Below, in pieces: positions 20,533 through 41,513 of a stretch of DNA of 64,000 nucleotides. The stretch spans positions 969,759-1,033,758 of the forward strand of contig JBMORU010000001.1 in NCBI GenBank assembly GCA_049322215.1. Reading direction: 5' to 3'. Source of the DNA: Patescibacteria group bacterium. Lineage in GTDB: Bacteria; Patescibacteriota; WWE3; UBA101185; UBA10185. Numbering within the stretch: position 1 is the stretch's first letter; each line of letters starts with the position of its first letter. The notes beneath the pieces were generated by a model. It was not told where the DNA came from, made no database searches, and saw nothing but the letters and a program-made list of their open reading frames with translations. A program made the position numbers and the translations under genes.

Positions 20533-21384
20533 CTACTCATTTTCACCAATTAGCTCTAATACCTCATCTGGAAGAGGCTCTTCTGTAGGAGTTTCCTCAC
20601 CCTCACTTGGTTGTTCTTCAGAAGCGGCTTCTGAGTCTTCAGGAGCCTCAGTAGACTCATCTACGGGGCCTTCTTCTAAAGCTTCATCAACTATGGTGCT
20701 TGGAACGGTAGTATCGAAATAACGAAGCCCTTTGAGCTTGTCTATTAACGCAATGAATTGCTCACTTGTAACATTTAAATTTACCGGATCATCAGTTACC
20801 GCGTTAGACTGAACTTCTAAATAAGGTGATGTTAAAACTACTGATGCTGAAAGCACATCAGCACCTTCTTCACTAACAGATTCACTATAACGCAAACTTA
20901 TAATATCTATTATACGTCCGGAGTTTTCCAGATTACGCAAAAAAGTTTCTATTTGTGTATAGTTTCCAGCAACTCCTAAACTTACTGTAACTGATTCATA
21001 TAATGCCAAGTCAGCATCTTCACCAGAAGTTTCACCAAAGGAATAACTTAGCTTAGTAACTGCTAAACCCGACTCTCTTGCCAAAGAATCTATTTGGGTT
21101 AAAAGAATAGGAACATTAGGGTCAGAAACCAAAACCTGGTCAATTAAGGCAGAATTTTCGTCTACGACACTTTTAAAGTCTAACAAATTATTTAAGTTAG
21201 AAGCTTTTGTTCTTAATTGAGCCTCAAGTTCACGTTTTTGCATAACCTCTGCTTTTAGTAATGGTAATTTACTTATAGAAGGATATACCCAAAAAACAAA
21301 CAACCCAATAGAAACAATGATACTAATTATTGGTATTAAAAAGTTTAGTAGGGTGTCTTTAAGTGTTTGAGTGTTTATATTCAT
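20533..21384 (-). CDS. pilO: type IV pilus assembly protein PilO-like (N-terminal TM, coiled coil, acidic C-terminal tail)
   Basis: Topology and position after pilN; last gene of the pilus operon. Confidence 0.55.
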   Translation of the reverse strand: MNINTQTLKDTLLNFLIPIISIIVSIGLFVFWVYPSISKLPLLKAEVMQKRELEAQLRTKASNLNNLLDFKSVVDENSALIDQVLVSDPNVPILLTQIDSLARESGLAVTKLSYSFGETSGEDADLALYESVTVSLGVAGNYTQIETFLRNLENSGRIIDIISLRYSESVSEEGADVLSASVVLTSPYLEVQSNAVTDDPVNLNVTSEQFIALIDKLKGLRYFDTTVPSTIVDEALEEGPVDESTEAPEDSEAASEEQPSEGEETPTEEPLPDEVLELIGENE

Positions 21385-21965
21385 TTCTTTAGTAAAGATT
21401 CATCAAAATCTATAATAATAAAATACTTGGCAGAGCTATTTTGGCTATCTAAGTTTACTGTTGTTAAAGTAACATTTGTAAATAGTGCCGCTAAACCATC
21501 GCCTGCAGAAGGAAAGTTTTGGTCTGATAAAGTTTTTATAAACTGTGCTATAGAAATATAATCTGAACCTGTACCTGATATATTTATAATTGGGTCACCG
21601 CTGTCTAAACTTAGGTTTGCAATAACTACATTTGCAGGAACTCTTTTGGATAATTCCGAAAGCAAAATAGAAAAGTAATTGCGATCGGCATAAATACTTT
21701 GAACCGCAGAAAATTTAGCATCCAAATTTCGTGCAGAAATTTCTATTTGAGCTAAGTTCGTGATTTCCTTACGTAATTCCTGAATACGGGCTTCTGCACC
21801 ATCAGACTCTTGTTGAAGACTTCGAATTTGCCAGTAATAGTAGCCACTGATACCCAAAACCAGTAACAAAATAAGCAAAGAAACCACAGTACCTGCCTTC
21901 ACCGCTTTTTCTCTTACTTGTTCCTGTTTTTCTTCCTGAGGAATCAGGTTAATACTTTGAGCCAT
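21381..21965 (-). CDS. pilN: type IV pilus assembly protein PilN-like
   Basis: Single TM plus coiled coil; overlaps pilM and pilO by 1-4 nt. Confidence 0.55.
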   Translation of the reverse strand: MAQSINLIPQEEKQEQVREKAVKAGTVVSLLILLLVLGISGYYYWQIRSLQQESDGAEARIQELRKEITNLAQIEISARNLDAKFSAVQSIYADRNYFSILLSELSKRVPANVVIANLSLDSGDPIINISGTGSDYISIAQFIKTLSDQNFPSAGDGLAALFTNVTLTTVNLDSQNSSAKYFIIIDFDESLLKK

Positions 21966-23002
21966 TAACTCGCAAGTCCTTTCATTGCTAGACCAACTGC
22001 AGTTACAAACATAGGCCCAGAATCGGTTAAGTATTCTTTTTTAGAAAGTATTTTTTCGGAAATCCTAATGTTTCTCCAAGGGTTAGCTAGCTCTACTTCT
22101 AAATCTAAATTATTTGCCATGTAAAAGAGTAATCCAGGCATCAGGGCAGCACCTCCGGAAAGTATTACTCTATTAATGATAACATTGGGATTATGCGTTG
22201 TATAGAAAATTTTAGAGCGTTTTATTTCGGCAGTAATATTATCAAATAATGGTTTAAGTACCTCATAAACCTTACCATCTGCCTGAGTGCTATCTAAACC
22301 ATAAGTTTTTTTATATTCTTCTGCCTGATTAAAATCAAAATTTAATGCTTGCGCCAAAGAACGCGATAAAGTATCACCACCCATTGAAATACTTCTAGTG
22401 AAGCGTACGTATCCTTTATATGTAACAATAATTTCTGTACTCAACTCTCCCATATTTAAAATAATGCTAGCGCTTGGCCTACTTGGGTTATCTCCTAAAA
22501 CACGTCCTATAGCAAGTGTTTCGGGCTCAAGTCCTTTGGGAACAAGCTTTGCATCTTTTAAAATGGCCACATATTTACTTAAAACTGCTTGTTTTGCAGC
22601 CACTAACAAAACATCCATTTTATTTTTATCAATAGAATCAGTATCTATTATTTGGAAATCATAATTTACTTCTTTAAGAGGTAAGGGTATGTATTGTTCT
22701 GCCTCAAAGGCTATCGAGCTTTTTAAATCTTTTTCACCCATTTGTGGAACTTTAATAACCCTTGTAAATACGTCGGATTCAGGCAAAGAAACAATTACTT
22801 GATTCGAGGTAAACCCATTTTCCGAAAATATTTCTTTTAGTTTTTCTGAGTAATAGTCTAAGTCTTCTTTTGTATTGGATTCCAAGTTTAACTTGGCGTC
22901 ATTGAAAACGGTAAAGTTTTTAAGAACTTTGTTTCCCTTTATTTCATCTATTTCTAAGGCTTTTATGCTATAAGTACCTAAATCTAAACCTACTATGGAC
23001 AT
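21965..23002 (-). CDS. pilM: type IV pilus assembly ATPase-fold protein PilM
   Basis: Actin-like fold starting MSIVGLDLGTYSIKALE. Confidence 0.75.
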   Translation of the reverse strand: MSIVGLDLGTYSIKALEIDEIKGNKVLKNFTVFNDAKLNLESNTKEDLDYYSEKLKEIFSENGFTSNQVIVSLPESDVFTRVIKVPQMGEKDLKSSIAFEAEQYIPLPLKEVNYDFQIIDTDSIDKNKMDVLLVAAKQAVLSKYVAILKDAKLVPKGLEPETLAIGRVLGDNPSRPSASIILNMGELSTEIIVTYKGYVRFTRSISMGGDTLSRSLAQALNFDFNQAEEYKKTYGLDSTQADGKVYEVLKPLFDNITAEIKRSKIFYTTHNPNVIINRVILSGGAALMPGLLFYMANNLDLEVELANPWRNIRISEKILSKKEYLTDSGPMFVTAVGLAMKGLAS

Positions 23003-23044
23003 GGTTAAATTCTAAAGTCTCTACTGTTTAATAGCAAGTTGCTA

Positions 23045-23857
23045 CTAATTAGAAAGTGGTTCTGTTGTATGTGTTTGAAATAAAGCAAAATCATATTGAA
23101 AGGGAACATAAGATTCGGTTTTTACTACCACAACTCGCTTTACGGCATCGCCAACTTGTCCAACTGATTCAATACGAATGCCTTGCGAAGGTAGAGAAGC
23201 ACCAGAATCAGATAAAACATTCACTTCCACATCGTTATAAAAAGACCGCAACCTAACCAACTTAGAATCGGGTCTGCCATTTATAGTAAAACAATGGGCA
23301 TATCCAAAAGCAGATGTAGCATCATCAAAACCGTTGCTAGTGTATGGAGATCCTAACGAATTTATGGCATAACTATCCATAGCTACAGAACCTGCGTTTC
23401 CATAAACATGGTAGGCCATTACTGAAGGTAAAAATCCGCTACTTGGGCTATTCCAACAAACAAATAAGTCAGTATTATCAGCATACCCATCTGTAATTAC
23501 TTGAGATACGTTTTCCTGTGTAACTCCAATTCCTAATGAGTCTGAAGAACCCTCAGTGCTTAATGTAATGCTTGCAGTAGCTACTACACCATCACTCCCT
23601 GTGATTTCCAAATAACAATCGGAAGTGCAGTTGCTGTTTTGAATATAATCTAATAATGTTTGATTTGGTAACGTTAAAATTCGTTCAACGGCAGCTTCAG
23701 CAACAGCTAAAGCTCTTTCTGAGTTATCGCTTTCACTTATAGTGCTTAAGTTTTTAATAAAGCGGGTGGAAACTGTAAGACCAATAGACAAAGCAATTAG
23801 CATCACCAAAACAATTAAGAGTATCGTTTGCCCTTGTTGATTTTTACCAAAACACAT
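23045..23857 (-). CDS. PilX-N-domain pilus assembly protein (paralog 1)
   Basis: N-terminus NQQGQTILLIVLVMLIALSIGL resembles the PilX N-terminal domain. Confidence 0.5.
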   Translation of the reverse strand: MCFGKNQQGQTILLIVLVMLIALSIGLTVSTRFIKNLSTISESDNSERALAVAEAAVERILTLPNQTLLDYIQNSNCTSDCYLEITGSDGVVATASITLSTEGSSDSLGIGVTQENVSQVITDGYADNTDLFVCWNSPSSGFLPSVMAYHVYGNAGSVAMDSYAINSLGSPYTSNGFDDATSAFGYAHCFTINGRPDSKLVRLRSFYNDVEVNVLSDSGASLPSQGIRIESVGQVGDAVKRVVVVKTESYVPFQYDFALFQTHTTEPLSN

Positions 23858-24390
23858 TAATATGCACCTCTAACAACAACGGTGTTGTCTAGGGAAACAG
23901 CTCCAGTGAAAACAGCCGCTGCTGCAGAACCTCTTTGAATGAAAACTAAGTGAATTTTTACTATAGAACCATCGCTAAGTTCAGAAATATCAGCAAAGTT
24001 AGGTTGACCGTCGCTGCGATCAACTCTTATTCCCGAAACTGAATCGTCGTTTATAATAGTTACTTGACTACCACCATTCACTGCTCTAAATAAGTTACCG
24101 TTTCCATCTACTGTATAAGATATTGTTACTGGGGTATCGTTAAGTTCGCGAGAAATAGTTACTTGTGTAGCACTATTTACTACAACAGAATCCGCATCTC
24201 GCAGCTCTTTTTCCAATTTTAAAAGCACATAATTTGTGTTTTGCTCAATTTCGTTCGCTACACGAGTTTTGTTATAACTTCTTACTAAAGATACAATTAT
24301 GTCACTTGAAACACCTACAGTTATAACAATTAAACTTACAACAATTAACAATTCTATTAAAGTGAATCCTTTAGAATTTTTATTGTGCAT
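23857..24390 (-). CDS. prepilin-type pseudopilin (minor pilin)
   Basis: KGFTLIELLIVVSLI class III signal. Confidence 0.65.
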   Translation of the reverse strand: MHNKNSKGFTLIELLIVVSLIVITVGVSSDIIVSLVRSYNKTRVANEIEQNTNYVLLKLEKELRDADSVVVNSATQVTISRELNDTPVTISYTVDGNGNLFRAVNGGSQVTIINDDSVSGIRVDRSDGQPNFADISELSDGSIVKIHLVFIQRGSAAAAVFTGAVSLDNTVVVRGAY

Positions 24391-24884
24391 TACTCTGGCC
24401 TCCAGTTAGAAAGTTCTGTATATGAATGCGCATATTTAACATCAGTACCTACTCGCCAAGAAACAGTAACTGCTATACGAACTAAGTTGTCAGAAGCATC
24501 AACACCATCTCCATTTATAGGGTCACTTGTTGTAAAAAATCGTGTTATTTGGTCGGCACCACTTCCTATTGTTTCGGTACCTGAAGATACGCCTATACCT
24601 GAAGATGTAGTTATATAACAGTTGCTCGAATCGCAGTTTCCCATTGTTGCAGTAAAAGTAGCCCAGTCAGTACTATCTCTAAAGGCGCGGGCTAACTCAA
24701 TTTCTTCATTCACTAATTTAGAACTTTGTAATAAAAGCTTGCTTTGAGTAGACGTTCTTAAAGTAAAAACAGATAAAGAAACCAAAGAGGTTATAACAAT
24801 AAGAGAAATTCCTAGAGCTACAAGTGTTTCTATTAACCCTATTCCGTTTTCGTTTTTAAATAGTTTAATCATTAGTATTCGCAA
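24390..24884 (-). CDS. prepilin-like pseudopilin (PilV-like)
   Basis: NGIGLIETLVALGISLIVI. Confidence 0.5.
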   Translation of the reverse strand: MRILMIKLFKNENGIGLIETLVALGISLIVITSLVSLSVFTLRTSTQSKLLLQSSKLVNEEIELARAFRDSTDWATFTATMGNCDSSNCYITTSSGIGVSSGTETIGSGADQITRFFTTSDPINGDGVDASDNLVRIAVTVSWRVGTDVKYAHSYTELSNWRPE

Positions 24885-25462
24885 CTTACTTCAGCAGACC
24901 TTGCGCGAATTAGCCCCGCTGTATTTAATTCTATAGCCTCACAAGATGTATTATCAGAAAATCCCACAGTTATTACACAATTGGTGGGATTTGCATTGTT
25001 ACATTGAAAACCATCAGCAGCTCCAGAACCATCATTAAATGTAACATCACCGTTTTCATAGCTAAAAAACACACAAATTGGTCCGTTTCTAATTAATATG
25101 TTTCTGGGTAAATTTGACCCATTAGTGACCGGTTCGGTAGTGTTGAGACAATTTGCACTATAGTTAGTACCTGTAGCCTTAAAATAAGAATAATTTTTAG
25201 CATTATCGTAAAAACGAATACCCCAGTGAGTATACGTTCCATCTGAACCAACTCCTGACAAAGCATTGTTTTGAACGCTGCGCAAATCGCTTTTTACTTG
25301 TTCCTGCGCTTGAGTACGGCTTTGATTTTCGGAATAGGTGTTAAACCCTGGAACCAAAAAGCCGGTTAAAATAGCAATAAGTGAAACCACCACCAATAGT
25401 TCAATAAGCGTAAAACCTTGCATATTAGGGGTTTTTAGTTTTGTAATGACAAATAAGTACAT
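24872..25462 (-). CDS. prepilin-type pseudopilin
   Basis: MQGFTLIELLVVVSLIAIL. Confidence 0.65.
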   Translation of the reverse strand: MYLFVITKLKTPNMQGFTLIELLVVVSLIAILTGFLVPGFNTYSENQSRTQAQEQVKSDLRSVQNNALSGVGSDGTYTHWGIRFYDNAKNYSYFKATGTNYSANCLNTTEPVTNGSNLPRNILIRNGPICVFFSYENGDVTFNDGSGAADGFQCNNANPTNCVITVGFSDNTSCEAIELNTAGLIRARSAEVSCEY

Positions 25463-25468
25463 ACTAAA

Positions 25469-26032
25469 TTAACTTTCAGGCTGCTTAACTCCTACACAGT
25501 AGTTTTTTGTAGGGAAATTATTACCACATCCACTTAGATTCCAATTGCTTAGTTGTTCGCAGCGCATCTCCAAATCTGATGCAGCTTTGGGATTTTCTAA
25601 AATAGCAGTGAGTATATAATATCTACCTTGAGCCGAAGCCGGAGAATAATAAGCATATCGGTTAAAATTTGCATTATTGCACGGACTATTTGTTCCGCCG
25701 GTTTCACCACTTGGATCTTCAGGAATATGCGACAAGTAAGCAGGAGATAGAGCAGTCTTCATAAAATTGCTGTTGTTATCGTTAACTTGCCGCCAGGCAC
25801 TTCCAGTGGTAGGATACCTTAGATTTTCTGCAAAATATATTTCTAATGCTGTTTGAATTTTTTGTAAATCGGAAATGCGTTGAGTATCGCGACCTTTCGA
25901 ACGAATACCCGAAGAGTTTAAAACTGCCAAAATAAGTCCACTTAGCACAGATATTATAACTATAACTAATAAAAGCTCTATTAAGGTAAAACCCTTCGTC
26001 TTAAGTAATTTGTTTTGGGCAGCCTTATACAT
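25469..26032 (-). CDS. type IV pilin
   Basis: KGFTLIELLLVIVIISVL...RDTQRISDLQKIQTALEIY. Confidence 0.7.
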   Translation of the reverse strand: MYKAAQNKLLKTKGFTLIELLLVIVIISVLSGLILAVLNSSGIRSKGRDTQRISDLQKIQTALEIYFAENLRYPTTGSAWRQVNDNNSNFMKTALSPAYLSHIPEDPSGETGGTNSPCNNANFNRYAYYSPASAQGRYYILTAILENPKAASDLEMRCEQLSNWNLSGCGNNFPTKNYCVGVKQPES

Positions 26033-26044
26033 ACATAAATGTTA

Positions 26045-26566
26045 TCACAATATTGTTAAGTCGTTACCTAGTTCGTAGTATAAATCGTCATCGCCACCAT
26101 CATTTGAATTTAGAGAATATTCTGTGAGTACTTCTAAACTAGCTTGCAACTCATAACCAAAATCAGTATGTGCATAAGAGTAATGGTGGGTACTATCGTT
26201 TAATGGATCAGTAGGAAGTTTTGTAATATAGTCACTTAGGTCGGCTGCAATCCACCCGTTTCCCAAACTATTAACTAAAGGCCCCGAACTTCCTACAGGA
26301 AGTGAAGTACTAACTCTTACAATGTCAGAAAAATCAGGATACACTCCGTTATCTATACGATATTCATTTATAGCTCTGTCTATAAGTTGTAAATCACTAA
26401 CTCGTTTTTCATCTCTAGCTTTACCTCTTAATTCAGATGGATTTACAGATAGTAAAGCATATGCAGAAATAATAGCTATTATCGCTATGACCACAGTTAT
26501 TTCAACATAAGTTAAACCTTTTTCAGAAACTTTTTTATTATGGATTTTCAACACCATAGCACACAT
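26045..26566 (-). CDS. divergent pilin-like protein. The start is uncertain: the listed 26578 is TTG, and ATGs occur at 26566 and 26557.
   Basis: GLTYVEITVVIAIIAI (Gly, with Glu at +5). The C-terminus DGGDDDLYYELGNDLTIL is shared with the pilins at 36868 and 44853. Confidence 0.45.
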   Translation of the reverse strand: MCAMVLKIHNKKVSEKGLTYVEITVVIAIIAIISAYALLSVNPSELRGKARDEKRVSDLQLIDRAINEYRIDNGVYPDFSDIVRVSTSLPVGSSGPLVNSLGNGWIAADLSDYITKLPTDPLNDSTHHYSYAHTDFGYELQASLEVLTEYSLNSNDGGDDDLYYELGNDLTIL

Positions 26567-27080
26567 CGCTTGTAGCAAAAGAAGAACAAGTAGACGATGG
26601 AATAGACCCGTACCCGTTTAAGCTACTACACTCATTATCATCGTTAGAGGTGGCAACCTCCATTATGGCAGCAAGCATGTATACTGATCCAGAAGCGTTA
26701 GTAATGTAGTGATATCTTTGAATATCTGGTGAGGAACATGGTTGATTAGCTGCAGATCCTTCTTCATCAGCAGGATCTAAAGGTAGGGGATCAATAAAGT
26801 CTGGTTCTAAATAAGAGGGTAGAAAGGAGCTGGCTTTTACCCAACCCTGGTTGCTACCCGAGGTGGGATACTGCCGGTTTTCCGCATAATACAGCTCTAA
26901 TGCCGTTTGGATTTTTTTTAAGTCTGAAGCACGTTGTGAATCACGAGCTTTCGACCTTATGCCTCCTGTATTTATAACAGAAAGCACTAAACCACTTAGT
27001 ACAGAAATTATAACCACTACTACTAACAATTCTATAAGTGTAAAACCATATTCCTTTGTTTTTAAATTTTGCGATTTCAT
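26538..27080 (-). CDS. type IV pilin (start revised to the ATG at 27080: MKSQNLKTKEYGFTLIELL)
   Basis: Paralog of the pilin at 25469 (RDSQRASDLKKIQTALELYYAEN). Confidence 0.7.
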   Translation of the reverse strand: MKSQNLKTKEYGFTLIELLVVVVIISVLSGLVLSVINTGGIRSKARDSQRASDLKKIQTALELYYAENRQYPTSGSNQGWVKASSFLPSYLEPDFIDPLPLDPADEEGSAANQPCSSPDIQRYHYITNASGSVYMLAAIMEVATSNDDNECSSLNGYGSIPSSTCSSFATSDVCYGVENP

Positions 27081-27091
27081 TTTAATAGCAT

Positions 27092-27117: not shown

Positions 27118-27127
27118 GTATAAGCCG

Positions 27128-27649: not shown

Positions 27650-27791
27650 GTCTCCACCCCCTTTCTGATAGTATATAGTTGTATTCAAAACCTCTATTTA
27701 ACATGATACTGGGCAGATGACTACAGCAAATAAAATGTACCATGTTCAATGTAATCATCTATATCAAGTATGGCTGTCGACATATTTAATG

Positions 27792-28667: not shown

Positions 28668-28668
28668 G

Positions 28669-33415: not shown

Positions 33416-33418
33416 AAA

Positions 33419-36286
33419 TTACTCCCAAAAAACCGGTGAAACAAACAAACCGCTGTAATTTGACACAGAATTATTACCAGAGCGTTCCTGGTTTGTTAAA
33501 TCAACAAGATATGCTGGATTATATTTAACAAGCACCGAAGGTTTATCATTGTTTAAACCCCGATCTTTTGCAAAAACTATAGTGTCTGTAGACCCGCCAA
33601 CTACAATTGGGCCTTCAAGAATAACGGTTTTTTCAGTTTCTACATCATTGGTAGATTCAAATGTAATAGGTGCCTGGCTTATAAAACCTGCTTCAATAAA
33701 CGGACGCGTAGTTTCTGTAGGTTCTGCAGTACCAAAGCTTTTACCCAAATCCTGACTTATAACTATTGGAACCTGACTTATAAACATTATTCTAGTTGAA
33801 TTTACTAAGGCAGATCTAAAAAATCTATTGTTTGCTGAACCGCTTGTTTCTCCGGCACCAAAAGTTACTGTAGAACTACCTGTAATGTATATGGTAGCAA
33901 CACCACTAGCTCCATTTGTTAATCTGTAAAAACGCTGACCTTGAGGCTGGGTTCCTAATGCATCTATACCGCTCTGAACACAGGAGGAGCTGGCATAATA
34001 AACCTCATCAGGGTCTAAAATTCTAGCGGTAAACATTCCAACGCAATCACCACCAGTTAACTCAATAGCGTTTTCAGGAGGTAGAAATGTATAAGATACA
34101 GGCCATGTAGGGGAAGATGTATTTAAATTGCGTATAAACATGTCACTTTCAGCAAAAAAACTTGTTCCTGAATTTACAGAAACATCGTCATTAGAAAATA
34201 AGTTACCTAAACCAGAAACTAAATAAGGTGAAAATCCTGCAGCAGTAACTAGTGCGGGGTCGGGAATAGCCTGACTAACACTTTCGGTACAGCTGGAACA
34301 ACCCACAAATATATCGCCATCTACAGCTGTAAACCAGCCACTTGAGGCTAAATCAAAACCTAAATGAATATCTACAGGAGAGGTAGAAGGATCCAAGTTT
34401 AATAAAGCACAGTTTCCACTTAAAGGACCGCTACCATTAGGACCTTCAACACAAGTTAATGAATATGTTGCATTTGCCTGTTGTGCGTACTCAGACAAGT
34501 CTACACATACGCTAAGCCCGTTTTCTACTGGAACAAGATTTATGTTGTAGCTTGGGTAATTGCTTGAGCCATCTAACGAAAGACTTCCATTTATTGGTGG
34601 GGAAGATACTGATATGCCGTCAACAGCTATGGAATTTAGTTCTAAAGTCCCTTTGTCTGAGGTGCTACATACTTGGTCTGTGGAATCCCATAACCAACCT
34701 CTAACATCAGTCACCCCAACTACTTCTACTGCTAAATGACTATTATTTCCACAATTCGACCACCCACTACTTGCCCAAGGAGATACTGGGTAGGCAGGAG
34801 GATTTAAAAAGCTCCCCGTAGGAATTAAATGGTTATAAGGATTTCCTGTACATCTCGTATTTACACAACTTGTTCCGCTACAGGTACCTGCGCCAGAACC
34901 GCCGGGGGCATAAATGTCACGGCTATCAACTTCTAGCATCCAAAATCCAGCATCACTACCACTTGCCGCAGGCGTCCATGTTCTGCCATAAGTACAGGAA
35001 GTACCTGAGCAAGATTGTGTAGCACCTACAGCAATAGGCGCAGCTAAACGCGTGTCATTTACTTCATCAAACAAAATCCTTTGCAAAGAACTGTACTCTA
35101 AGTTTCCGCCAGCATCGTTTGCTCGTAGAGTTAAATTTATAGTTTCCCCTGAACGTACAACTAAACGATTAGTAGGGCTATCAAACGTATCTTCCACGGG
35201 AGCTAAAATTTCACTTGTAGGAGGAGAATTAACAGTAATTAAAATGCGACTATTGTCACCACAGTTTGCAAAACCAGCAACGTTTTCTGTAGGGTATGGA
35301 GCAGGATTTAATGGGTCAGTTCCAGGATTACCCGTACACCATACACTAGAAGTATCTGAAGCATTTGTTGCAATAATCCAAGATCCTTGATCTGCTAGTG
35401 GAATACTATTCCAGGTGCGCGAAAAATTACAGGTACTTCCCGAACAACTCACATTTGATTGAATTTGAATCCAACTGCCTAACCAGGTACCACTAACTGG
35501 GTCTATCTCACGGCGCCATAGTTGCCCTAAAGATAAATTTCCATCTGTATCAGATGCAGTAACATTGAAAGTAACGCTTCCGCCAGAGTTAACAAAATAG
35601 GGTGTAGCTGGAGAAGTTATTGAAGCAGTTGGTGCAACATTGGCCGGCTGCACTTTAAACCATAAATGATTATCCCAGTCATCTGCACCTAAAGACACCG
35701 TAGCTGTACAACCAGTACCAGAAGTGTTTGTGTAAGCTCCAAGAGGATAGGATATAAACCATGACACGCACGTATATCCAGGAGGAGGAGTTAAGGTAAA
35801 GCTGTGTGGCCCCGCACCGTCACTAGCTGCTGCACGTATGTAGTAGGGCTCGGGGTTGCAAGCCCAACTGGCAGTACTTCCCCCAGAATTGGATACGGTT
35901 ACTGTATTGCTTGAATCTGTTTGATAGCTACCACCACACGAAGCGCTAGCACGCTGCCAAAGTCTTGTTGACCCTGTAAAGTCATCATAAATTCTACCAA
36001 TAACGCGACGGGTGTCACTAGGAGTACCCCCGCCACCACTACAACAACTGCAAGTACCTCCCTCACTAGTTGGAATACCATCCCCGTAGTCAGGAGCACC
36101 CGGCTGACAACAACAACCATTACTGCAACCTCCAGGTAAAGGATCACCACATAAGTGCCAACATGGGGCGGGATCACCGCAACCTGCAAATGTTGTATTA
36201 GGCGTTAATAACCCAATGGCTATAAAAGAAATAGCTGTAAAGACCGTAATTAAAAATACTTTTCTATAATGGCTTAGTTTGGGCAT
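33419..36286 (-). CDS. 955-aa secreted Cys-rich protein (giant 2), paralog of the gene at 29526
   Basis: Signal peptide. Shares the core RRVIGRIYDD...WACNPEPYYIRAAASDGAGPHSFTL...DDWDNHLWFK and the C-terminal roughly 450 aa (...NYSGLFVSPVFWE) with giant 1. Confidence 0.5.
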   Translation of the reverse strand: MPKLSHYRKVFLITVFTAISFIAIGLLTPNTTFAGCGDPAPCWHLCGDPLPGGCSNGCCCQPGAPDYGDGIPTSEGGTCSCCSGGGGTPSDTRRVIGRIYDDFTGSTRLWQRASASCGGSYQTDSSNTVTVSNSGGSTASWACNPEPYYIRAAASDGAGPHSFTLTPPPGYTCVSWFISYPLGAYTNTSGTGCTATVSLGADDWDNHLWFKVQPANVAPTASITSPATPYFVNSGGSVTFNVTASDTDGNLSLGQLWRREIDPVSGTWLGSWIQIQSNVSCSGSTCNFSRTWNSIPLADQGSWIIATNASDTSSVWCTGNPGTDPLNPAPYPTENVAGFANCGDNSRILITVNSPPTSEILAPVEDTFDSPTNRLVVRSGETINLTLRANDAGGNLEYSSLQRILFDEVNDTRLAAPIAVGATQSCSGTSCTYGRTWTPAASGSDAGFWMLEVDSRDIYAPGGSGAGTCSGTSCVNTRCTGNPYNHLIPTGSFLNPPAYPVSPWASSGWSNCGNNSHLAVEVVGVTDVRGWLWDSTDQVCSTSDKGTLELNSIAVDGISVSSPPINGSLSLDGSSNYPSYNINLVPVENGLSVCVDLSEYAQQANATYSLTCVEGPNGSGPLSGNCALLNLDPSTSPVDIHLGFDLASSGWFTAVDGDIFVGCSSCTESVSQAIPDPALVTAAGFSPYLVSGLGNLFSNDDVSVNSGTSFFAESDMFIRNLNTSSPTWPVSYTFLPPENAIELTGGDCVGMFTARILDPDEVYYASSSCVQSGIDALGTQPQGQRFYRLTNGASGVATIYITGSSTVTFGAGETSGSANNRFFRSALVNSTRIMFISQVPIVISQDLGKSFGTAEPTETTRPFIEAGFISQAPITFESTNDVETEKTVILEGPIVVGGSTDTIVFAKDRGLNNDKPSVLVKYNPAYLVDLTNQERSGNNSVSNYSGLFVSPVFWE

Positions 36287-36845
36287 TCTGTATAAATAAT
36301 ATCTCAGTAGGAGTAATTTCGTAAGCTTGTAAAAACAAAGAACTTGTTACCCCGTCGATTACTCGATGAAAATATATAACTTCTGGCGTGGTTTTAACTT
36401 CTATAAACAGCTCTCCGTTAGCGTCATTTAAAAATGTAACTACGGGGGCGTCGTATAAAAATTCAGGATCGTCTTCAACATTAGCATACACCTTACCAAG
36501 AGGCTTGAATCCTATTAAAGTAACTTCTTTATTATTTTCAAGAACTACTTTGCCGTCTAAAAATAGAGTGTCTTTAGTTAGATATTGGCGGGTTAACTCA
36601 AAACTCAATACTTTACTAGTTCCATTTTCAGGCACTGGAATTAAATATTCTTCACTAACAGAAAATTGAGAAAATGGTTCTGAATTTAGTGTTTCTTCTA
36701 GTGAGGTGTCGTTTGTAGGGGGTCTTAAGTTGGCTACTATGTTCTCAAATGAACCAGTAGTATATAAGTAGTAAAGAGCTGAAAACAGAAATAATAAAAC
36801 AGTGAGTAATACACCAAGTTTTTTGTACTTTTTTAAATCCACCAT
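36264..36845 (-). CDS. single-pass membrane protein (193 aa), partner of giant 2
   Basis: TM segment LGVLLTVLLFLFSALYYLY. It overlaps the start of giant 2 by 23 nt. Confidence 0.4.
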   Translation of the reverse strand: MVDLKKYKKLGVLLTVLLFLFSALYYLYTTGSFENIVANLRPPTNDTSLEETLNSEPFSQFSVSEEYLIPVPENGTSKVLSFELTRQYLTKDTLFLDGKVVLENNKEVTLIGFKPLGKVYANVEDDPEFLYDAPVVTFLNDANGELFIEVKTTPEVIYFHRVIDGVTSSLFLQAYEITPTEILFIQNAQTKPL

Positions 36846-36867
36846 TACTAATAATAGTAACCAAAAT

Positions 36868-37383
36868 TTAGAGTATTGTTAATGATGTGCCTATTTCATA
36901 AACGCCCGATGCATTGCCACCATCAGTGCTCATTAATGCTGCGTTATCAGGATGCTCTAAAACAGCGTTCAGTTCAAAATCAGTTCCGTCAGATGCATAT
37001 GTGTAAACATTTGTACCTGTGTTTTCCGGATCTAGGGGCAGCTTGGGCAAATAGTTAGATATACCAGTCATTCCTGTGGGAATTTGATATAAAACATAAC
37101 CTGTCCCATCTAGTACTTGGGTACCTGAACCACTATCACAAGTTGTGCATGTTGTAGTAGCTACTAATGTTGCTTCGCCTTCTGCTAAGGCTAGAGAAAT
37201 TCCTTGAAATAAAGAATCTAAATCACTCAAGCGACGTGCATCTCGGCTTTTTTGTAGTAGTGAAACAGGGTTTATTGCTACAACTATTACACCTGTTAGT
37301 ATAGAAATTATTGCTATTACAACCAAAAGTTCTACTAGAGTGAATCCTGTCGAGTTTTTTCTGTTTTTCAATTTAGTTTCCAT
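36868..37383 (-). CDS. type IV pilin (start revised to the ATG at 37383: METKLKNRKNSTGFTLVELLVVIAIISIL)
   Basis: Class III signal. Shares TTCTTCDSGSGTQV...LPLDP...YTYASDGTDFELNAVLE...DGGN..VYEIG..LTIL with the pilin at 44853. Confidence 0.65.
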   Translation of the reverse strand: METKLKNRKNSTGFTLVELLVVIAIISILTGVIVVAINPVSLLQKSRDARRLSDLDSLFQGISLALAEGEATLVATTTCTTCDSGSGTQVLDGTGYVLYQIPTGMTGISNYLPKLPLDPENTGTNVYTYASDGTDFELNAVLEHPDNAALMSTDGGNASGVYEIGTSLTIL

Positions 37384-37393
37384 AATGTGTATT

Positions 37394-38596
37394 CTATAAA
37401 CTACTTGTGATTTGGTAAATAGGCGTAATAATCGAAACAATCAAAAGACCTACCATACCACCAAGCATTAAAAGAATTATTGGTTCCAATGCAGAAGACA
37501 ATCCTTGTACAGCATGATCAGTTTCTCCACCAAAAAAATCTGCAACCTTATCTAGTACTTCATCTAGTTGACCTGTTTCTTCACCAACTGCCGCCATTTG
37601 ACCAAGGAGGGGAGGAAAAATTTTATTAGCTCTAAGGTACTCTGACAAAGCATTACCTTTTTCTACACTGTTGGCAGCTTCTATGGCAGCTCTTTTAATG
37701 GCACTGTTTTTTGCAGCACGCGCTACTATGTGTAAAGCTTCAACAATAGGAATTGCAGAAGCAACTAACAAGGATAACGTACGCGTAAATTCTGATAATT
37801 CTTTTTGTTTGTTTATTTTACCAAACACAGGGAGTGTAAAGGACAGTTTAGATAATAATTCTTTACCGCCCTCAGTTGCAACAAAAGTTTTTATTGCAAA
37901 TATTAAACCGGCAACTGCGACCAAAACTATATAATAGCGTTGTACAAACAAATCAGACACAGTGATCATAAATTTTGTAATAGGAGGTAAGTCTACATTT
38001 AAGCTCTCATACATGTCAGCTAGCTTTGGTATAACAAAAACCATCATTAAAACAAAAACACCTATCATAACCACAAATACTATCGCCGGATACACCATGG
38101 CTGCTTTAAATTTAGACCTAAGCTCCCGCTGTTTTTCCATAGTGTCGGCTAAACGTAAAAGTACTTCGTCTAACTTACCCGATGCCTCACCTGCCATAAC
38201 TAAAGACTGATATGTTTGGGGGAAAACCTTAGGATATCTTCCTAAAGCCGTTGACAACGAAGAACCGCCCTCAATGTCTCGAAGAGAATCCATAATTATT
38301 TTTTTCATTTTAGGATTAGGTGATTGCTCAGATAAAACTTCTAAGGCTCGTGAAATAGGCAAACCTGCCGAAATCATAGTAGAAAGCTGACGTGTGAAAG
38401 CAACTATATCATTATCAGGAACTCCGCGAATACTAGTTAATTGATCTAATATTGAGGTTCTTTTTTCTGTTAATGTTACAACAAATAAACCCTGATCTTT
38501 TAACAAGCTGACTGCCAATGCTTCAGTTCTAGCGTCAACTGTACCAGTACGAGACTGCCCTTTATTGTCACGTGCAGTATAAGTATAAATAGGCAT
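37394..38596 (-). CDS. pilC: type IV pilus inner-membrane platform protein PilC (GspF family)
   Basis: Two GspF repeats and 3 TM segments; 400 aa. Confidence 0.8.
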   Translation of the reverse strand: MPIYTYTARDNKGQSRTGTVDARTEALAVSLLKDQGLFVVTLTEKRTSILDQLTSIRGVPDNDIVAFTRQLSTMISAGLPISRALEVLSEQSPNPKMKKIIMDSLRDIEGGSSLSTALGRYPKVFPQTYQSLVMAGEASGKLDEVLLRLADTMEKQRELRSKFKAAMVYPAIVFVVMIGVFVLMMVFVIPKLADMYESLNVDLPPITKFMITVSDLFVQRYYIVLVAVAGLIFAIKTFVATEGGKELLSKLSFTLPVFGKINKQKELSEFTRTLSLLVASAIPIVEALHIVARAAKNSAIKRAAIEAANSVEKGNALSEYLRANKIFPPLLGQMAAVGEETGQLDEVLDKVADFFGGETDHAVQGLSSALEPIILLMLGGMVGLLIVSIITPIYQITSSL

Positions 38597-39669
38597 TATT
38601 TATCCTTATCTTCCTTTAAAATTCTTCGCAGCTCATCAGGCTCGTTTGTAACTTTTAGAGCCTCACCTAAATCTATATGACCGTCGGTAACCAACTGGGC
38701 TAAATTCTTTTCAAGTGTTTGCATACCCATACTTCCACTTGTACGAATTACATTATTAAGTTGAAATGTTTTTCCTTCTCTAATTAAATTGCTTACAGCA
38801 TTAGTGGCAGTCATCAATTCAATTGCAGGAACCATTCCATAAGTTGGGGAGGGAACTAAGCGTTGTGAAATAACAGCCTCTAAGCTTTGAGACAATTGAA
38901 GCTGAATTTGTTTTTGTTGATTCTCAGGAAATGAGTCAATAATACGGTCAATACTTTGAGCAGCTGAATTTGTATGTAAAGTAGCAAATACCAAATGACC
39001 TGTTTCTGCAATTGTTACAGCAGCAGCTATTGTTTCATAGTCACGCATTTCTCCAATTAAAACTACGTTAGGATCTTGTCTTAAAACTGATTTCAACGCA
39101 ACACCCCAAGAATGGGTGTCTAAGTGCATTTCTCTTTGTTCTATCAACGATTGTTTGTTGGTAAAAACATACTCAATTGGATCTTCTATAGTAATTACGT
39201 GCTCTGCGCGTGTTTCATTAATTCGCTCTAACATTGCTGCTATTGTTGTAGATTTTCCATGCCCAGTTGGGCCTGTAACTAATACAAATCCCTGAGTTAG
39301 GGCACATAAGTCTCCTAAAACTGCAGGCAAGTTTAGTTCCTCCAAAGTAGGCACCTGTAAAGGCACCACGCGCATAGCAACTGATGCATAACCTTTTTGA
39401 AAAAACACGTTGACTCTAAAACGTACTTTATTGCCTAGTGAAACCGAAAAATCGACTTCTTTATTTACATCAAAAATATCTTTTTGCTCTTGGGTCATAA
39501 TTTGAGTCAAAACATACTCAATGTCGTCTACTACAAGTGGGGGATAATCGTCTAAACGTTTTAAAAATGTGTTTACTCTTACCATTGGAGAAATTCCCAC
39601 CGACAAATGTAAATCCGTCGCCTCAATTTCAACAATATGCTCAAGTAGTTTAGTGATATTAAATTTCAT
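38596..39669 (-). CDS. pilT: twitching-motility retraction ATPase PilT
   Basis: GPTGHGKSTT Walker A; 357 aa with no N-terminal GSPII_E_N domain. Confidence 0.8.
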   Translation of the reverse strand: MKFNITKLLEHIVEIEATDLHLSVGISPMVRVNTFLKRLDDYPPLVVDDIEYVLTQIMTQEQKDIFDVNKEVDFSVSLGNKVRFRVNVFFQKGYASVAMRVVPLQVPTLEELNLPAVLGDLCALTQGFVLVTGPTGHGKSTTIAAMLERINETRAEHVITIEDPIEYVFTNKQSLIEQREMHLDTHSWGVALKSVLRQDPNVVLIGEMRDYETIAAAVTIAETGHLVFATLHTNSAAQSIDRIIDSFPENQQKQIQLQLSQSLEAVISQRLVPSPTYGMVPAIELMTATNAVSNLIREGKTFQLNNVIRTSGSMGMQTLEKNLAQLVTDGHIDLGEALKVTNEPDELRRILKEDKDK

Positions 39670-39671
39670 AA

Positions 39672-41441
39672 TTACTCCTTTGCAACTCTCAAAACTTCTT
39701 CAATTGTGGTTGAACCCTCTAATACCTTCAAAAACCCATCTTGTACAAGTGTTATCATTCCTTCTGCTACAGCCATATCTTGTATTTTATCGGCAGTTGA
39801 ATTTTCTAAAGTTAACTCTGCAATTTTATTACTCATTTCTAGCACCTCAAATATACCCATTCGTCCTTTGTAGCCTGTTTTATTGCATTTGTCACAACCT
39901 TTACCACGATATAATTTTATTTTGTCTTCATGCAAAAGCTTTAATGTATCGGCAATACGCTTATCTTTACTCATTAATACTGTAGACTTTTCAATTTTGC
40001 TTAAATGCTCACGCATTTCTTTGGTTATTTCTTGCGGAGGTTCATAAGATTCTTTACAGTCAACACATATTTTTCTTACTAGTCGTTGTGCCACAATAAC
40101 ATTTACTGTAGATGCCAACAAAAAGTTTTCTACACCCATGTCCAACATACGAGGCAACGCACCAGAGGATGAGTTTGTATGTAAAGTTGAAAGTACCAAG
40201 TGCCCCGTTAGCGCAGCATGAATACCTAATTCTGCTGTTTCGCCGTCACGAATTTCTCCCACCATGATAATGTTAGGGTCTTGTCTTAAAAAAGCACGCA
40301 AGCCTGTTGCAAATGTTAACCCTGCCTGCGGATTAACTTGAACCTGATTAACTCCTGCTACTCTGATTTCTACGGGATCTTCTAAAGTAACAATATTTAC
40401 TCTTATGGTATTTAGCTTATTTAAGGCCGATGCCAAGGTTACGGTTTTACCCGAACCTGTAGGGCCCGTTACTAAAATCATGCCTGTAGGTTTTAATAAG
40501 CTTTCTTCAAAACGTTTTAACGATAAGCCTCGTAACCCCAAATCGTCAAAAGTAAAAATAAACCCTTCTTCTTTCAATAAACGTATAACTACTTTTTCGC
40601 CATAAATGGTGGGTAAAGTAGATACACGCAAGTCAGTTTGAGTATTACCCACCTGAACTTTAAAACGACCATCCAACGGAATACGCTTTTCATCAATTTT
40701 CATATTTCCTAAAATTTTTATACGTGCCACTATTGAATCGTGCATTTCTTTAGGGAAAGTACGCTTTTCTTCAAGTACGCCGTCTACACGATAACGTAAT
40801 CTTGTTTTGTCTTCACCAGGTTCTATATGAACATCAGACGCCGAAATTTTTACAGCCGTCTCTAAAATCATTCCAACAATACGTGCAATAGGAGCATCTC
40901 TAATTGTGGCCTCATCTGCTTCTAAGTCACCCTGATAATCCTCTAACTTAAGAGTGGTAGCCTGTATATCTTCTAAGGCAGCGCTAATTTCCTCGCCTAT
41001 AGCGCGCCCTTGCTGCTCATCGACTATACGAAGTATTTCTTTATCGGTAGCAATAAAAGGAATAACTTTATGCCCAGTACGACGTTCCAAAAATTCAATA
41101 GTCTGCAAGTCCAAAGGATCCACCATTGCTACTTTTAAGTTATTGTCTTGTAGTTCAAAAGGAAATACCTGATATTTTCGGGCAACTGTTGTAGGTATTA
41201 TCTCGGCATAGTTAGGATCGATTTTTATGTTTGATAAATCTACATATTCGATGCCATAAACCTCACCAAATGCTTTTACAAAATCCTCACTGCTAACGTA
41301 ACCACGCTCTTTAATTATTTCTTCTATGCTTTTGCCTGTATTAACGTTTTCAAATTTAATTGCAGAAAGCTGGTCATCATTAATGATGCCTTTTTCATGC
41401 AAAACGTCTTCTATTCCTTTTTGTGGATTCAAAAATGACAT
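39672..41441 (-). CDS. pilB: type IV pilus extension ATPase PilB/GspE (start revised to the ATG at 41441: MSFLNPQKGIEDV...)
   Basis: GPTGSGKTVTL, and a tetracysteine C-terminus CVDCKESY...CDKCNKTGYKGR. The listed start at 41513 is TTG. Confidence 0.8.
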   Translation of the reverse strand: MSFLNPQKGIEDVLHEKGIINDDQLSAIKFENVNTGKSIEEIIKERGYVSSEDFVKAFGEVYGIEYVDLSNIKIDPNYAEIIPTTVARKYQVFPFELQDNNLKVAMVDPLDLQTIEFLERRTGHKVIPFIATDKEILRIVDEQQGRAIGEEISAALEDIQATTLKLEDYQGDLEADEATIRDAPIARIVGMILETAVKISASDVHIEPGEDKTRLRYRVDGVLEEKRTFPKEMHDSIVARIKILGNMKIDEKRIPLDGRFKVQVGNTQTDLRVSTLPTIYGEKVVIRLLKEEGFIFTFDDLGLRGLSLKRFEESLLKPTGMILVTGPTGSGKTVTLASALNKLNTIRVNIVTLEDPVEIRVAGVNQVQVNPQAGLTFATGLRAFLRQDPNIIMVGEIRDGETAELGIHAALTGHLVLSTLHTNSSSGALPRMLDMGVENFLLASTVNVIVAQRLVRKICVDCKESYEPPQEITKEMREHLSKIEKSTVLMSKDKRIADTLKLLHEDKIKLYRGKGCDKCNKTGYKGRMGIFEVLEMSNKIAELTLENSTADKIQDMAVAEGMITLVQDGFLKVLEGSTTIEEVLRVAKE

Positions 41442-41483
41442 AGGCAGGTTTTTTCTACTCTTTACAAGAGTCTTCCTACAAAA

Positions 41484-41513
41484 ATGATAACAGTTTGGTC
41501 TGTGATTTTGCAA
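41484..41513 (-). promoter_or_regulatory. putative sigma-70-type promoter of the pilus super-operon (-35 TTGCAA, 18-nt spacer, TGtTATCAT extended -10), divergent from the holB-like gene
   Basis: Read on the minus strand in the 100-bp pilB/holB divergent region. Confidence 0.3.

Follow-up and report, generated by a model that had tools for sequence, protein, structure and literature searches.

A chromosomal type IVa-like pilus operon of candidate division WWE3 with a duplicated gene pair for large secreted proteins

Positions 20,533 to 41,513 of the window (the whole 64-kb stretch of DNA that was analysed) are tiled by exactly 21 co-oriented minus-strand open reading frames (ORFs) of at least 150 aa, which run from pilB to pilO as the first-pass annotation had claimed (Table 1). 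When the likeliest start codons are used, 10 of the 20 junctions overlap by 1–23 nt and nine have gaps of 1–47 nt; the largest gap (142 nt), the single one of its kind, separates pilD from prepilin 2. This is a real and complete type IV pilus (T4P) operon, type IVa-like and chromosomal, of an ultrasmall bacterium of candidate division WWE3 (Katanobacteria; Patescibacteria/CPR). The window exactly matches a Patescibacteria metagenome-assembled genome, on a 1.11-Mb contig. Related genomes keep the operon's gene order together with the holB and trmD flanks; the order recurs across WWE3 and, in a simpler form, in Microgenomates genomes. The operon is thus typical, and its earlier description as unusually complete and compact fails. 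All 21 genes are contiguous here, while some WWE3 genomes have the operon split after pilD. The locus departs furthest from the ordinary in the four genes (193, 955, 238 and 1058 aa) that had been left unnamed.

Table 1. Features of the pilus locus in window coordinates, listed along the minus strand from pilB; a slash marks the end of a prepilin leader.
Feature	Coordinates	Strand	Length (aa)	Remarks
Promoter-like site, pilB/holB	41484..41513	-		TTGCAA-18-TATCAT, TG-extended; 9/12 consensus positions
pilB, extension ATPase	39672..41441	-	589	Pfam T2SSE 432 bits, MshEN
pilT, retraction ATPase	38596..39669	-	357	Pfam T2SSE; NCBIfam TIGR01420 440 bits (cut-off 319)
pilC, platform protein	37394..38596	-	400	Pfam T2SSF, two stretches, 218 bits
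Prepilin 1	36868..37383	-	171	ATG 37383; leader METKLKNRKNSTG/FTLVE; Pfam N_methyl 35.1 bits
Small protein 1	36264..36845	-	193	N-terminal TM segment; overlaps start of 955-aa gene by 23 nt
Large secreted protein A	33419..36286	-	955	Sec-type signal peptide; Cys-rich N-terminus (32 Cys); Ig-like repeats
Small protein 2	32699..33415	-	238	N-terminal TM segment; overlaps start of 1058-aa gene by 4 nt
Large secreted protein B	29526..32702	-	1058	Paralog of A; NCBI ACOZAO_05470
X289, pilin-like	28669..29526	-	285	Leader MKNHFNQQG/QVLLF; no Glu5
pilD, prepilin peptidase/N-methyltransferase	27792..28667	-	291	Pfam A24_N_bact 90 bits, Peptidase_A24 32 bits
Promoter-like site before prepilin 2	27767..27795	-		TTGACA-17-CATACT; 10/12 positions; 142-nt gap
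Prepilin 2	27128..27649	-	173	Leader MRTLRSSKG/FTLIE; Pfam N_methyl 35.2 bits
Prepilin 3	26538..27080	-	180	N_methyl 32.8 bits; GspG-like N-terminus
Prepilin 4	26045..26557	-	170	Leader ...SEKG/LTYVE; TIGR02532 16.8 vs 16.3 (barely above)
Prepilin 5	25469..26032	-	187	N_methyl 27.6, T2SSG 26.5, both above cut-off
Prepilin 6, GspH/ComGD-like minor pilin	24872..25423	-	183	N_methyl 29.7
Prepilin 7, ComGE/GspI-like minor pilin	24390..24872	-	160	Leader MIKLFKNENG/IGLIE (motif G/IGLIE)
Prepilin 8, ComGF/GspJ-like minor pilin	23857..24390	-	177	N_methyl 29.6
X270, X289 paralog	23045..23857	-	270	Leader MCFGKNQQG/QTILL; no Glu5
pilM	21965..23002	-	345	Pfam PilM_2 183 bits; TIGR01175 192 bits (cut-off 133)
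pilN	21381..21965	-	194	Pfam PilN 29.6 bits (cut-off 22.8)
pilO	20533..21384	-	283	Pfam PilO 41.5 bits (cut-off 22)
Orphan prepilin, outside operon	44826..45371	+		Pfam N_methyl 29.8 bits

Profile searches place PilB, PilT, PilC, PilD and PilMNO, all claimed earlier, above the Pfam gathering scores (i.e. of T2SSE, T2SSF, Peptidase_A24, PilM_2, PilN and PilO). PilB contains a Walker A motif (GPTGSGKT) and a zinc motif (CVDC/CDKC), and is 66–77% identical to candidate division WWE3 PilB. PilT contains GPTGHGKS (Walker A) and AVSNLIRE, PilD contains CSFC/CLNC and GGGD, and PilO ends in an acidic tail of ∼60 aa. The best NCBIfam match of PilB is the type IV-A PilB (584 bits, equivalog cut-off of 675 not reached), and those of PilC are GspF/PilC, also under the equivalog cut-offs; the T4a subtype was therefore assigned by best match and because PilT and PilMNO are present.

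In the scanned ORFs of the window (110 aa or longer, apart from a few overlapping, probably spurious ones), the Secretin and PilP families have no match, in agreement with the earlier statement that PilP and PilQ are absent. Two LPXTG proteins in the window, also claimed before, pass Pfam Gram_pos_anchor (sorting motifs LPRTG and LPETG). A secretin-less T4P cluster with PilT and LPXTG substrates is thus supported; CPR bacteria have been published with a non-Gram-negative envelope and without PilQ (PMC6744442).

The 41,513 end of the region is a mechanical TTG start. The pilB gene probably starts at the ATG at 41,441, which places the promoter-like site beside it in the 100-nt pilB/holB intergenic region; the TTGCAA of this site is shared with a plus-strand site (41,508–41,535) upstream of holB. 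Of the promoter claimed here in the first pass, the intergenic consensus match is present, but such matches are not enriched over shuffled sequences (49 promoter-like sites in the region vs 58 ± 8 in shuffles). An internal promoter upstream of prepilin 2 is plausible from the sequence, because the 142-nt gap, the second promoter-like site and the operon's strongest Shine–Dalgarno sequence (AAGGGGGTGGAG) all precede this gene.

The operon contains eight class-III prepilins, whose leaders and Glu5 are directly visible in the sequence, rather than the nine prepilin-type genes counted earlier; the ninth lies outside it on the plus strand. By eye, the C-terminal sequences of this orphan look like the prepilin-1 type (unscored). 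Six of the eight pass the Pfam N_methyl cut-off, while prepilins 4 and 7 fall under it. Prepilin 4 (N_methyl 13.7; T2SSG 20.7 vs 21) has orthologues of 42–50% identity, and prepilin 7 (N_methyl 17.1 vs 21.2; TIGR02532 cut-off also missed) has orthologues of 40–46% identity. The best NCBIfam matches of prepilins 6 (GspH/ComGD) and 8 (ComGF) are sub-threshold. Two prepilins are candidates for the fibre pilin. Prepilin 2, the candidate major pilin of the first-pass annotation, has the best expression signals, is the first pilin after X289 in WWE3 loci (orthologues 53–60% identical) and contains 37% GAST residues and six Cys. Prepilin 1 (GAST 37%) has the highest conservation, and its position in the pilC–prepilin 1–pilD block is the most widely conserved pilin position, kept in WWE3 and Microgenomates loci.

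X289 and X270 had been described as PilX-N paralogs. At 28% identity (E 6e-18) they are indeed paralogs, and both have an N-terminal helix like that of pilins, but Pfam PilX_N matches neither of them, even at E ≤ 10, and X270 matches no Pfam family in profile searches. The predicted fold of X289 is a long N-terminal helix plus a beta-sandwich. X270 closes a conserved minor-pilin block (prepilins 6–7–8–X) and holds the same place in WWE3 and Microgenomates loci. An X289-type gene lies directly downstream of the large gene in every related locus whose sequence continues, and WWE3 loci without a large gene have the X270 copy only.

The four remaining genes form a small-plus-large gene pair that is duplicated in this window. 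The large proteins A and B (47% identity over 924 columns) have Sec-type signal peptides without a class-III motif, and B has no sequence match in Pfam, NCBIfam or PDB. They belong to a family of 135 cluster representatives (95 at E<1e-10) with variable N-termini and a conserved C-terminal domain of ∼300–450 residues, which in A is predicted to consist of Ig and beta-solenoid parts. The C-terminus bears no LPXTG or other wall anchor; instead, its tail is conserved (NY[ST]GL...W), although its prediction is less confident than that of the remaining domain. Among structural matches, ComZ is the closest to this domain, and ice-binding proteins and tapirins also score. In two WWE3 genomes (L027 and L031), this slot is taken by a different protein of ∼725 aa, so the domain is not obligatory. 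Small protein 1 has no match in Pfam or NCBIfam; related loci have a gene of 176–246 aa at this place ahead of the large gene, with no sequence homologue of small protein 1 found in them. Small protein 2 has no Pfam match and no detectable similarity to small protein 1, and its homologues lie upstream of the large gene in two loci (L013 and L007).

Judging from these gene predictions, the locus very probably gives a WWE3/CPR bacterium a retractile pilus that is functional, T4a-like and free of a secretin. The system would run as other single-membrane (monoderm) T4P do: the eight prepilins, and probably also the G/Q-type X289 and X270, would be cleaved and N-methylated by PilD, and PilB would polymerise the fibre on a PilC/PilMNO platform. 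With no outer membrane to cross, the fibre would pass the wall unaided by a secretin, and PilT would depolymerise it, making the pilus retractile. Prepilins 6–7–8 and X270 would constitute a GspH/I/J/K-like (ComGD/E/F/G-like) priming and tip complex. On this reading, WWE3 lineages have inserted between pilD and the fibre pilins an accessory cassette that encodes a small membrane protein, a large Cys-rich protein secreted through Sec, and X289; the last is a second copy of the tip-type pilin-like protein. At the pilus tip, X289 could be the docking site for the C-terminal Ig and beta-solenoid domain of the large protein, whose variable N-terminal part could then be exposed as an adhesin towards a host cell or substrate; retraction could draw the epibiont onto its target. 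Guilt by association and fold similarity (Foldseek E against PDB no better than 0.015) point to this tip-adhesin role, for which we judge the chances to be close to, or slightly short of, even.

A type II secretion-like pseudopilus that exports proteins, with no surface pilus, would fit the additional scores of PilB, PilC and several pilins on GspE, GspF, GspG and GspH models, and the Pfam T2SSG matches on three pilins (one above cut-off). It is nevertheless highly improbable: type II secretion needs a secretin and an outer membrane, and the scanned ORFs contain no secretin; the dedicated PilT is above its family cut-off, PilM, PilN and PilO are of the T4P type, the best ATPase match is a type IV-A PilB, and imaging has shown pili on cells of CPR bacteria (PMC11623550). 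Alternatively, the pilus could be primarily a DNA-uptake (competence) machine, with the ComZ-like large proteins as tip DNA receptors feeding ComEC and supplying nucleotides to an organism unable to make them. ComZ is a DNA-binding competence protein (PMC6561018), uptake has been proposed for CPR genomes in which T4P are paired with ComEC and DprA (PMC3812714, PMC6744442), and the minor pilins have ComGD, ComGE and ComGF as best, sub-threshold NCBIfam matches. We consider this unlikely. The non-pilin large proteins have no counterpart of the ComZ-type interface, and the beta-solenoid fold, shared with ice-binding proteins and tapirins, is not DNA-specific. The ComGA and ComGB models are far under their cut-offs while PilT and PilMNO are present, which identifies a T4a-type rather than a ComG operon. 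Tandem duplication and an N-terminus that is hypervariable, rich in Cys and provided with Ig repeats suit target-specific adhesion better than generic DNA binding, and, according to the TM7x report (PMC11623550), the host-binding pilus made no contribution to competence.

It is also possible, if rather doubtful, that the large proteins are surface or secreted proteins outside the pilus (adhesins associated with the wall, S-layer-like proteins or beta-helix enzymes that degrade polysaccharides) whose genes are mere passengers of the operon, and that X289 is just a redundant minor pilin. Their Sec signal peptides, the lack of a pilin helix and the lack of a sequence-level tie to any pilus protein are consistent with this. 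However, the large genes are translationally coupled in the operon through overlapping start and stop codons, and in the WWE3 loci examined their co-occurrence with an additional pilin-like gene of the tip type is strict. The conserved tail in place of a wall anchor, and strongest fold matches to a tip pilin and non-enzymatic solenoids rather than enzymes, likewise speak against this reading.

Among known systems, the T4P loci of monoderm Firmicutes, namely the pil locus of Streptococcus sanguinis and the T4P of Clostridium, belong to another phylum and have pilins unrelated in sequence; S. sanguinis uses modular pilins, whereas separate non-pilin proteins are found here. Similarity to the Caldicellulosiruptor tapirins (PDB 4wa0, 6n2b) is weak. 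The ComZ of Thermus thermophilus (PDB 6qvi) is a GspK-like pilin with a solenoid, is encoded beside the minor pilin PilA2, binds it and has been argued to be located at the pilus tip (PMC6561018). In ComZ, the solenoid is inserted in the GspK-like pilin domain of one polypeptide, whereas here the solenoid belongs to a non-pilin protein exported by Sec, and a gene of its own encodes the GspK/PilX-like X289; no sequence similarity of the large proteins to ComZ was found. Thermus is also a diderm with a secretin. The PilY1/PilC tip adhesins of proteobacterial T4aP are likewise large Sec-secreted non-pilin proteins encoded with minor pilins; their C-terminal domain is conserved, their N-terminal part is variable and adhesive, and some species have several paralogous copies. 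This C-terminal domain is a beta-propeller, in contrast to the beta-solenoid predicted here, and Pfam PilY1/Neisseria_PilC gave no match.

The closest systems are the T4P of other CPR bacteria, in which PilB, PilT, PilC, PilM, PilN, PilO and PilD are co-localised and PilQ is absent (Meheust et al. 2019, PMC6744442). A WWE3 genome with T4P, pilT, a sortase and sorted proteins has been described (Kantor et al. 2013, PMC3812714), and TM7x, a Saccharibacterium in cultivation, makes T4P with which it binds its host and twitches (Grossman et al. 2024, PMC11623550). These systems, including T4P locus one of Nanosynbacter lyticus TM7x, share with ours the co-localised pil genes, several divergent pilins, the lack of PilQ and a monoderm-like envelope with sortase substrates, and X289 and X270 resemble the large pilin-like 'PilX' proteins of TM7x, which have beta-sandwich heads and no canonical PilD motif (PMC11623550). 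Secretin-less, co-localised T4P genes are thus already published for CPR and WWE3 and are not new. No description of large non-pilin secreted proteins in a duplicated cassette was found in the literature consulted. Such a cassette is a feature by which this locus differs from other CPR T4P, and the operon's sole new part is the large secreted proteins, which may be pilus-tip adhesins.

The pilus operon is an ordinary, well-preserved and contiguous WWE3 example of a published system, and a type IV pilus (T4P) with PilT but no secretin has been published as a CPR hallmark. Numerous CPR genomes encode PilB, PilT, PilC, PilM, PilN, PilO and PilD together, while PilQ was not found, which fits a non-Gram-negative envelope (Meheust et al. 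2019, PMC6744442). A WWE3 genome encodes a T4P with pilT, a sortase and sorted proteins (Kantor et al. 2013, PMC3812714). The saccharibacterium TM7x was shown experimentally to build two T4P, for host binding and twitching, and large 'PilX' pilins without a PilD motif were described in it (Grossman et al. 2024, PMC11623550). Since these publications report such pili, a retractile secretin-less pilus is already established for the group, and its assignment to a monoderm-type cell in the first-pass annotation is correct (PMC6744442, PMC3812714, PMC11623550).

Coordinates of the pilus genes and of other features of the window
Feature	Position	Strand	Remarks
Successive ORFs	10434-13493	+	310, 336 and 276 aa, no Pfam match; between recG and a 16S rRNA methyltransferase-like gene
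Pilus operon	20533-41513	-	pilB to pilO
PilO C-terminus	20533-20720	-	acidic Glu/Pro/Ser-rich tail, ~60 residues past the PilO domain
X270	23045-23857	-	270-aa pilin-like protein
Prepilins 6-8	23857-25423	-
Prepilin with motif G↓IGLIE	24390-24872	-	below threshold; orthologues in relatives 40-46% identical
Prepilin with motif G↓LTYVE	26045-26557	-	passes only TIGR02532, by 0.5 bit
Prepilin 2	27128-27649	-
Cassette	28669-36845	-
X289	28669-29526	-	285-aa pilin-like protein; exact match to ACOZAO_05465
1058-aa large protein	29526-32702	-	exact match to ACOZAO_05470
Tail of 1058-aa protein	29526-29580	-	ends …NYSGLFVSEVYWEK
Small protein 2	32699-33415	-	238 aa
955-aa large protein	33419-36286	-	exact match to ACOZAO_05480
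Tail of 955-aa protein	33419-33470	-	ends …NYSGLFVSPVFWE
Small protein 1	36264-36845	-	193 aa
Prepilin 1	36868-37383	-
Likely pilB start (ATG)	41441	-
Promoter-like site	41513-41484	-	TTGCAA-18-TATCAT, TG upstream
gyrB	42308-44275	+
Orphan prepilin	44826-45371	+	between gyrB and two LPXTG proteins; C-terminal sequence like prepilin 1 by eye, not scored
LPXTG proteins	45427-46698, 46846-47970	-	apparently paralogous by eye (not scored), common C-terminal ~170-aa region; with ppa, they keep gyrB and gyrA apart
gyrA	49366-51963
Xer-like tyrosine recombinase	55373-56359
ORF-free stretch	56662-57197		~530 nt without an ORF of at least 35 aa; no Rfam or tRNA match; adjoins the recombinase
Low-GC part	56001-58000		30% GC; contains the ORF-free stretch
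857-aa protein	60771-63344	-	DUF87/HerA and TrwB-type coupling-protein ATPase signatures; no further conjugation genes seen nearby

The operon of the first-pass annotation is real, and most of its interpretation stands. It is tiled on one strand by exactly 21 ORFs, each at least 150 aa long, the number counted before. With the most plausible start codons, 10 of the 20 junctions overlap (by 1-23 nt), nine are gaps of 1-47 nt, and a single 142-nt gap separates pilD from prepilin 2. Housekeeping genes on the opposite strand flank the operon, i.e. rnc, rpsP, a KH-domain gene and trmD on one side and a holB-like gene and gyrB on the other. Direct repeats in the region are paralogous coding segments only (prepilin N-termini, PilB/PilT and the two large genes).

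The outer end of the pilB ORF (41513) is a mechanical TTG start and the likely true start an ATG, which leaves a 100-nt intergenic region containing the divergent promoter proposed earlier. The position of that promoter is sensible; the site itself matches at only 9 of 12 positions, and promoter-like sites are no commoner in the region (49) than in shuffles (58 ± 8). Its TTGCAA also belongs to a plus-strand site, TTGCAA-16-TATAAT, immediately upstream of holB. A second candidate (TTGACA-17-CATACT, 10/12) lies inside the 142-nt gap ahead of prepilin 2, which also has the strongest Shine-Dalgarno sequence of the operon. A single transcript is therefore plausible as one option among others. No terminator-like site was found after pilO, and Rfam and tRNA scans of the window returned no matches.

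The core is firmly identified as the retractile, T4a-like pilus of a WWE3 bacterium with a single membrane, the envelope type of the lineage being taken from the literature (PMC6744442). The products of pilB, pilT, pilC, pilD, pilM, pilN and pilO all match Pfam families above the gathering score, in line with the earlier motif calls. PilB has the domains of a PilB-type extension ATPase (T2SSE, 432 bits; MshEN, 74 bits); its best NCBIfam match is type_IV_pilB (type IV-A) at 584 bits, below the equivalog cut-off of 675. PilT passes T2SSE and is a retraction ATPase by TIGR01420 (PilT/PilU family; 440 bits, cut-off 319) and its AVSNLIRE motif. The platform protein PilC contains two T2SSF stretches (218 bits), with GspF/PilC as its best NCBIfam match under the equivalog cut-offs. 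PilD passes A24_N_bact (90 bits) and Peptidase_A24 (32 bits), and PilM_2 (183 bits), PilN (29.6 bits) and PilO (41.5 bits) are likewise above cut-off, PilM also exceeding that of TIGR01175. Walker A motifs are present in PilB and PilT, a tetracysteine motif in PilB, and CxxC pairs and GGGD in PilD. A ComG operon was considered and rejected (ComGA, 248 bits against 300; ComGB, 147 against 240; PilT and PilMNO present), as was a type II secretion system, on the presence of PilT and PilMNO and on family scores.

The window's PilB shares 66-77% identity with its counterparts in many genomes of candidate division WWE3, the complete RAAC2_WWE3_1 chromosome among them, and ~50% with those of Daviesbacteria, Curtissbacteria and Shapirobacteria; WWE3 are thus the nearest relatives. 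The three ACOZAO proteins matched exactly come from a Patescibacteria MAG, on a contig of 1,112,869 bp. A Firmicute source, considered in view of 36% GC and the LPXTG proteins, is excluded by these exact matches and by the PilB comparison. Among the scanned ORFs of at least 110 aa in the 64-kb window, none matches the Secretin or PilP families, in agreement with the reported absence of PilP and PilQ. Two proteins downstream of gyrB carry sorting signals (LPRTG and LPETG) and pass Pfam Gram_pos_anchor.

The operon encodes eight prepilins, rather than nine as first counted, each with Gly(-1), Glu(+5) and a leader that is short and basic; the ninth is the orphan outside the operon. Six of the eight pass Pfam N_methyl. 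Prepilins 1 and 2 are both candidates for the fibre-forming subunit: the best expression signals are those of prepilin 2, prepilin 1 is the most conserved, and Gly/Ala/Ser/Thr content is ~37% in both. The two pilin-like proteins X289 and X270 begin …NQQG↓Q and continue with a hydrophobic helix that lacks Glu5. They had been described as PilX-N paralogs: they are true paralogs, but neither matches PilX_N (PF14341) even at E ≤ 10. A PDB sequence search with an X289 profile also gave no match. The block of prepilins 6, 7 and 8, which closes with the Glu5-less X270, has GspH/ComGD, ComGE and ComGF as best NCBIfam matches, all sub-threshold. From sequence, these four proteins may constitute a GspH/I/J/K-like priming complex.

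Proteins translated from 88 related loci were compared with those of the window and with two profiles. WWE3 and Microgenomates loci share a common core, i.e. holB, then pilB-pilT-pilC-prepilin1-pilD and, further on, prepilin6-7-8-X270-pilM-pilN-pilO; trmD follows on the opposite strand wherever the locus sequence extends that far. The gene order of the window, previously described as unusually complete and compact, is therefore typical. Among WWE3 loci with the full 12.5 kb downstream of pilB, 11 have a member of the large-protein family after pilD, one further locus has an assembly gap and then an X289-type gene, two have an unrelated ~725-aa protein and an X289-type gene, six have the X270 copy only and no cassette, three have an operon broken after pilD, and one (L022) is unassigned.

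The cassette comprises, in order, a small transmembrane (TM) protein, a large Cys-rich Sec-secreted protein and an X289-type protein, and it is present in the window and in L001, L007, L008, L010, L012, L013, L016, L017, L020 and L036. An X289-type gene directly follows the large gene wherever the locus sequence goes on, and a 176-246-aa gene with an N-terminal TM segment lies upstream of the large gene, usually overlapping it. The large genes form a tandem pair in the window, L001 and L010. Neither small protein of the window has a Pfam match at E ≤ 10; because jackhmmer found relatives of small protein 2 in only two loci and of small protein 1 in none, they are conserved by position only. 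The ~725-aa proteins that precede the X289-type gene in L027 (18892-21075) and L031 do not match the large-protein C-domain profile, and the slot before this gene seems to accept unrelated large proteins. In six Microgenomates-type loci (L069, L072, L074, L079, L083 and L085), a different ~680-aa ORF, which the profile used does not relate to the WWE3 large-protein family, lies between the first pilin and pilD.

The two large proteins are 47% identical. Each starts with a signal peptide of the Sec type (…TTFA↓G and …QANA↓Q), is rich in Cys at the N-terminus (32 Cys in total in the 955-aa protein, 40 in the 1058-aa protein) and shows neither a class-III motif nor an N_methyl match. One sub-threshold Big_7 hit aside, searches of Pfam, NCBIfam and PDB sequences matched neither protein. 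A word-index search with the 955-aa protein returned only itself and its paralog, and one with a 22-sequence profile a single protein, so that the family was seen only by an exhaustive HMMER profile search of 1.84 billion representatives, which yielded 135 proteins (95 with E<1e-10). Family members are alike in their C-terminal 300-450 residues and diverge upstream; this C-domain occurs in about 100 sequence clusters. Pfam found no family shared across the C-domain of 22 members, neither the C-domain profile nor the 1058-aa protein matched any PDB sequence, and a five-row C-domain alignment against genome contigs gave one pattern and no confirmed match.

The confident AF2 model of residues 500-955 of the 955-aa protein (pLDDT 80.5, pTM 0.79) has an Ig-like sandwich and, after it, a beta-solenoid flanked by a helix. 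Foldseek of the C-domain against the PDB found no significant match (best E 0.015). The predicted fold has the ice-binding-protein-type beta-solenoid that is a trait of ComZ, a GspK-like pilin with an inserted solenoid of this type, which binds the neighbouring minor pilin PilA2 and has been argued to cap the competence pilus (PMC6561018). The last ~15 residues of the large proteins carry a motif, conserved throughout the family, in which a Trp is nearly invariant. These tails have no regular secondary structure in the models, with pLDDT (~62-72) under that of the rest of the domain, and could be a docking motif.

Given the embedding in the operon with translational coupling, the strict co-occurrence with X289-type genes, the conserved-C/variable-N pattern and the ComZ-like fold, we infer that the large protein and X289 form an accessory tip module. 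Mechanistically, (i) the Ig and beta-solenoid C-domain with its NY[ST]GL...W tail would dock on the putatively GspK/PilX-like X289; (ii) the hypervariable N-terminal part would set the host cell or surface to which the episymbiont attaches; and (iii) the tandem duplication in the window would yield two alternative tips on one machine. As a whole, the picture of the cassette, small TM protein included, as a WWE3-specific exchangeable tip module, functionally a 'split ComZ' whose hypervariable N-part chooses the target and whose duplication gives two tips, is possible rather than probable. Two other readings are live. The large proteins may be DNA receptors, as for ComZ. They may also be surface proteins independent of the pilus, and here their link to X289, i.e. 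adjacency and co-occurrence across loci, speaks for the tip module instead.

The cited papers do not describe the large-protein/X289 cassette and name no WWE3 host. The comparative value of the locus lies in a conserved WWE3/Microgenomates core combined with a lineage-specific slot, whose large secreted proteins evolve fast and each come with a putative tip-type pilin-like partner of their own. If the large proteins are tip adhesins, they would be candidate host-recognition determinants of uncultivated episymbionts, usable as bait for finding hosts. Their C-domain could become a new defined domain family.

Compared with known systems, the proposed tip module differs from ComZ in that the solenoid of ComZ lies inside the pilin polypeptide, whereas here solenoid and putative tip pilin are two separate polypeptides; the ComZ pilin domain with its N-terminal pilin helix is missing from both large proteins. 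PilY1 with its minor pilins is a tip module alike in logic but unlike in fold: the C-terminal beta-propeller of PilY1/PilC has no Pfam match in the large proteins, for which an Ig-plus-beta-solenoid fold is predicted.
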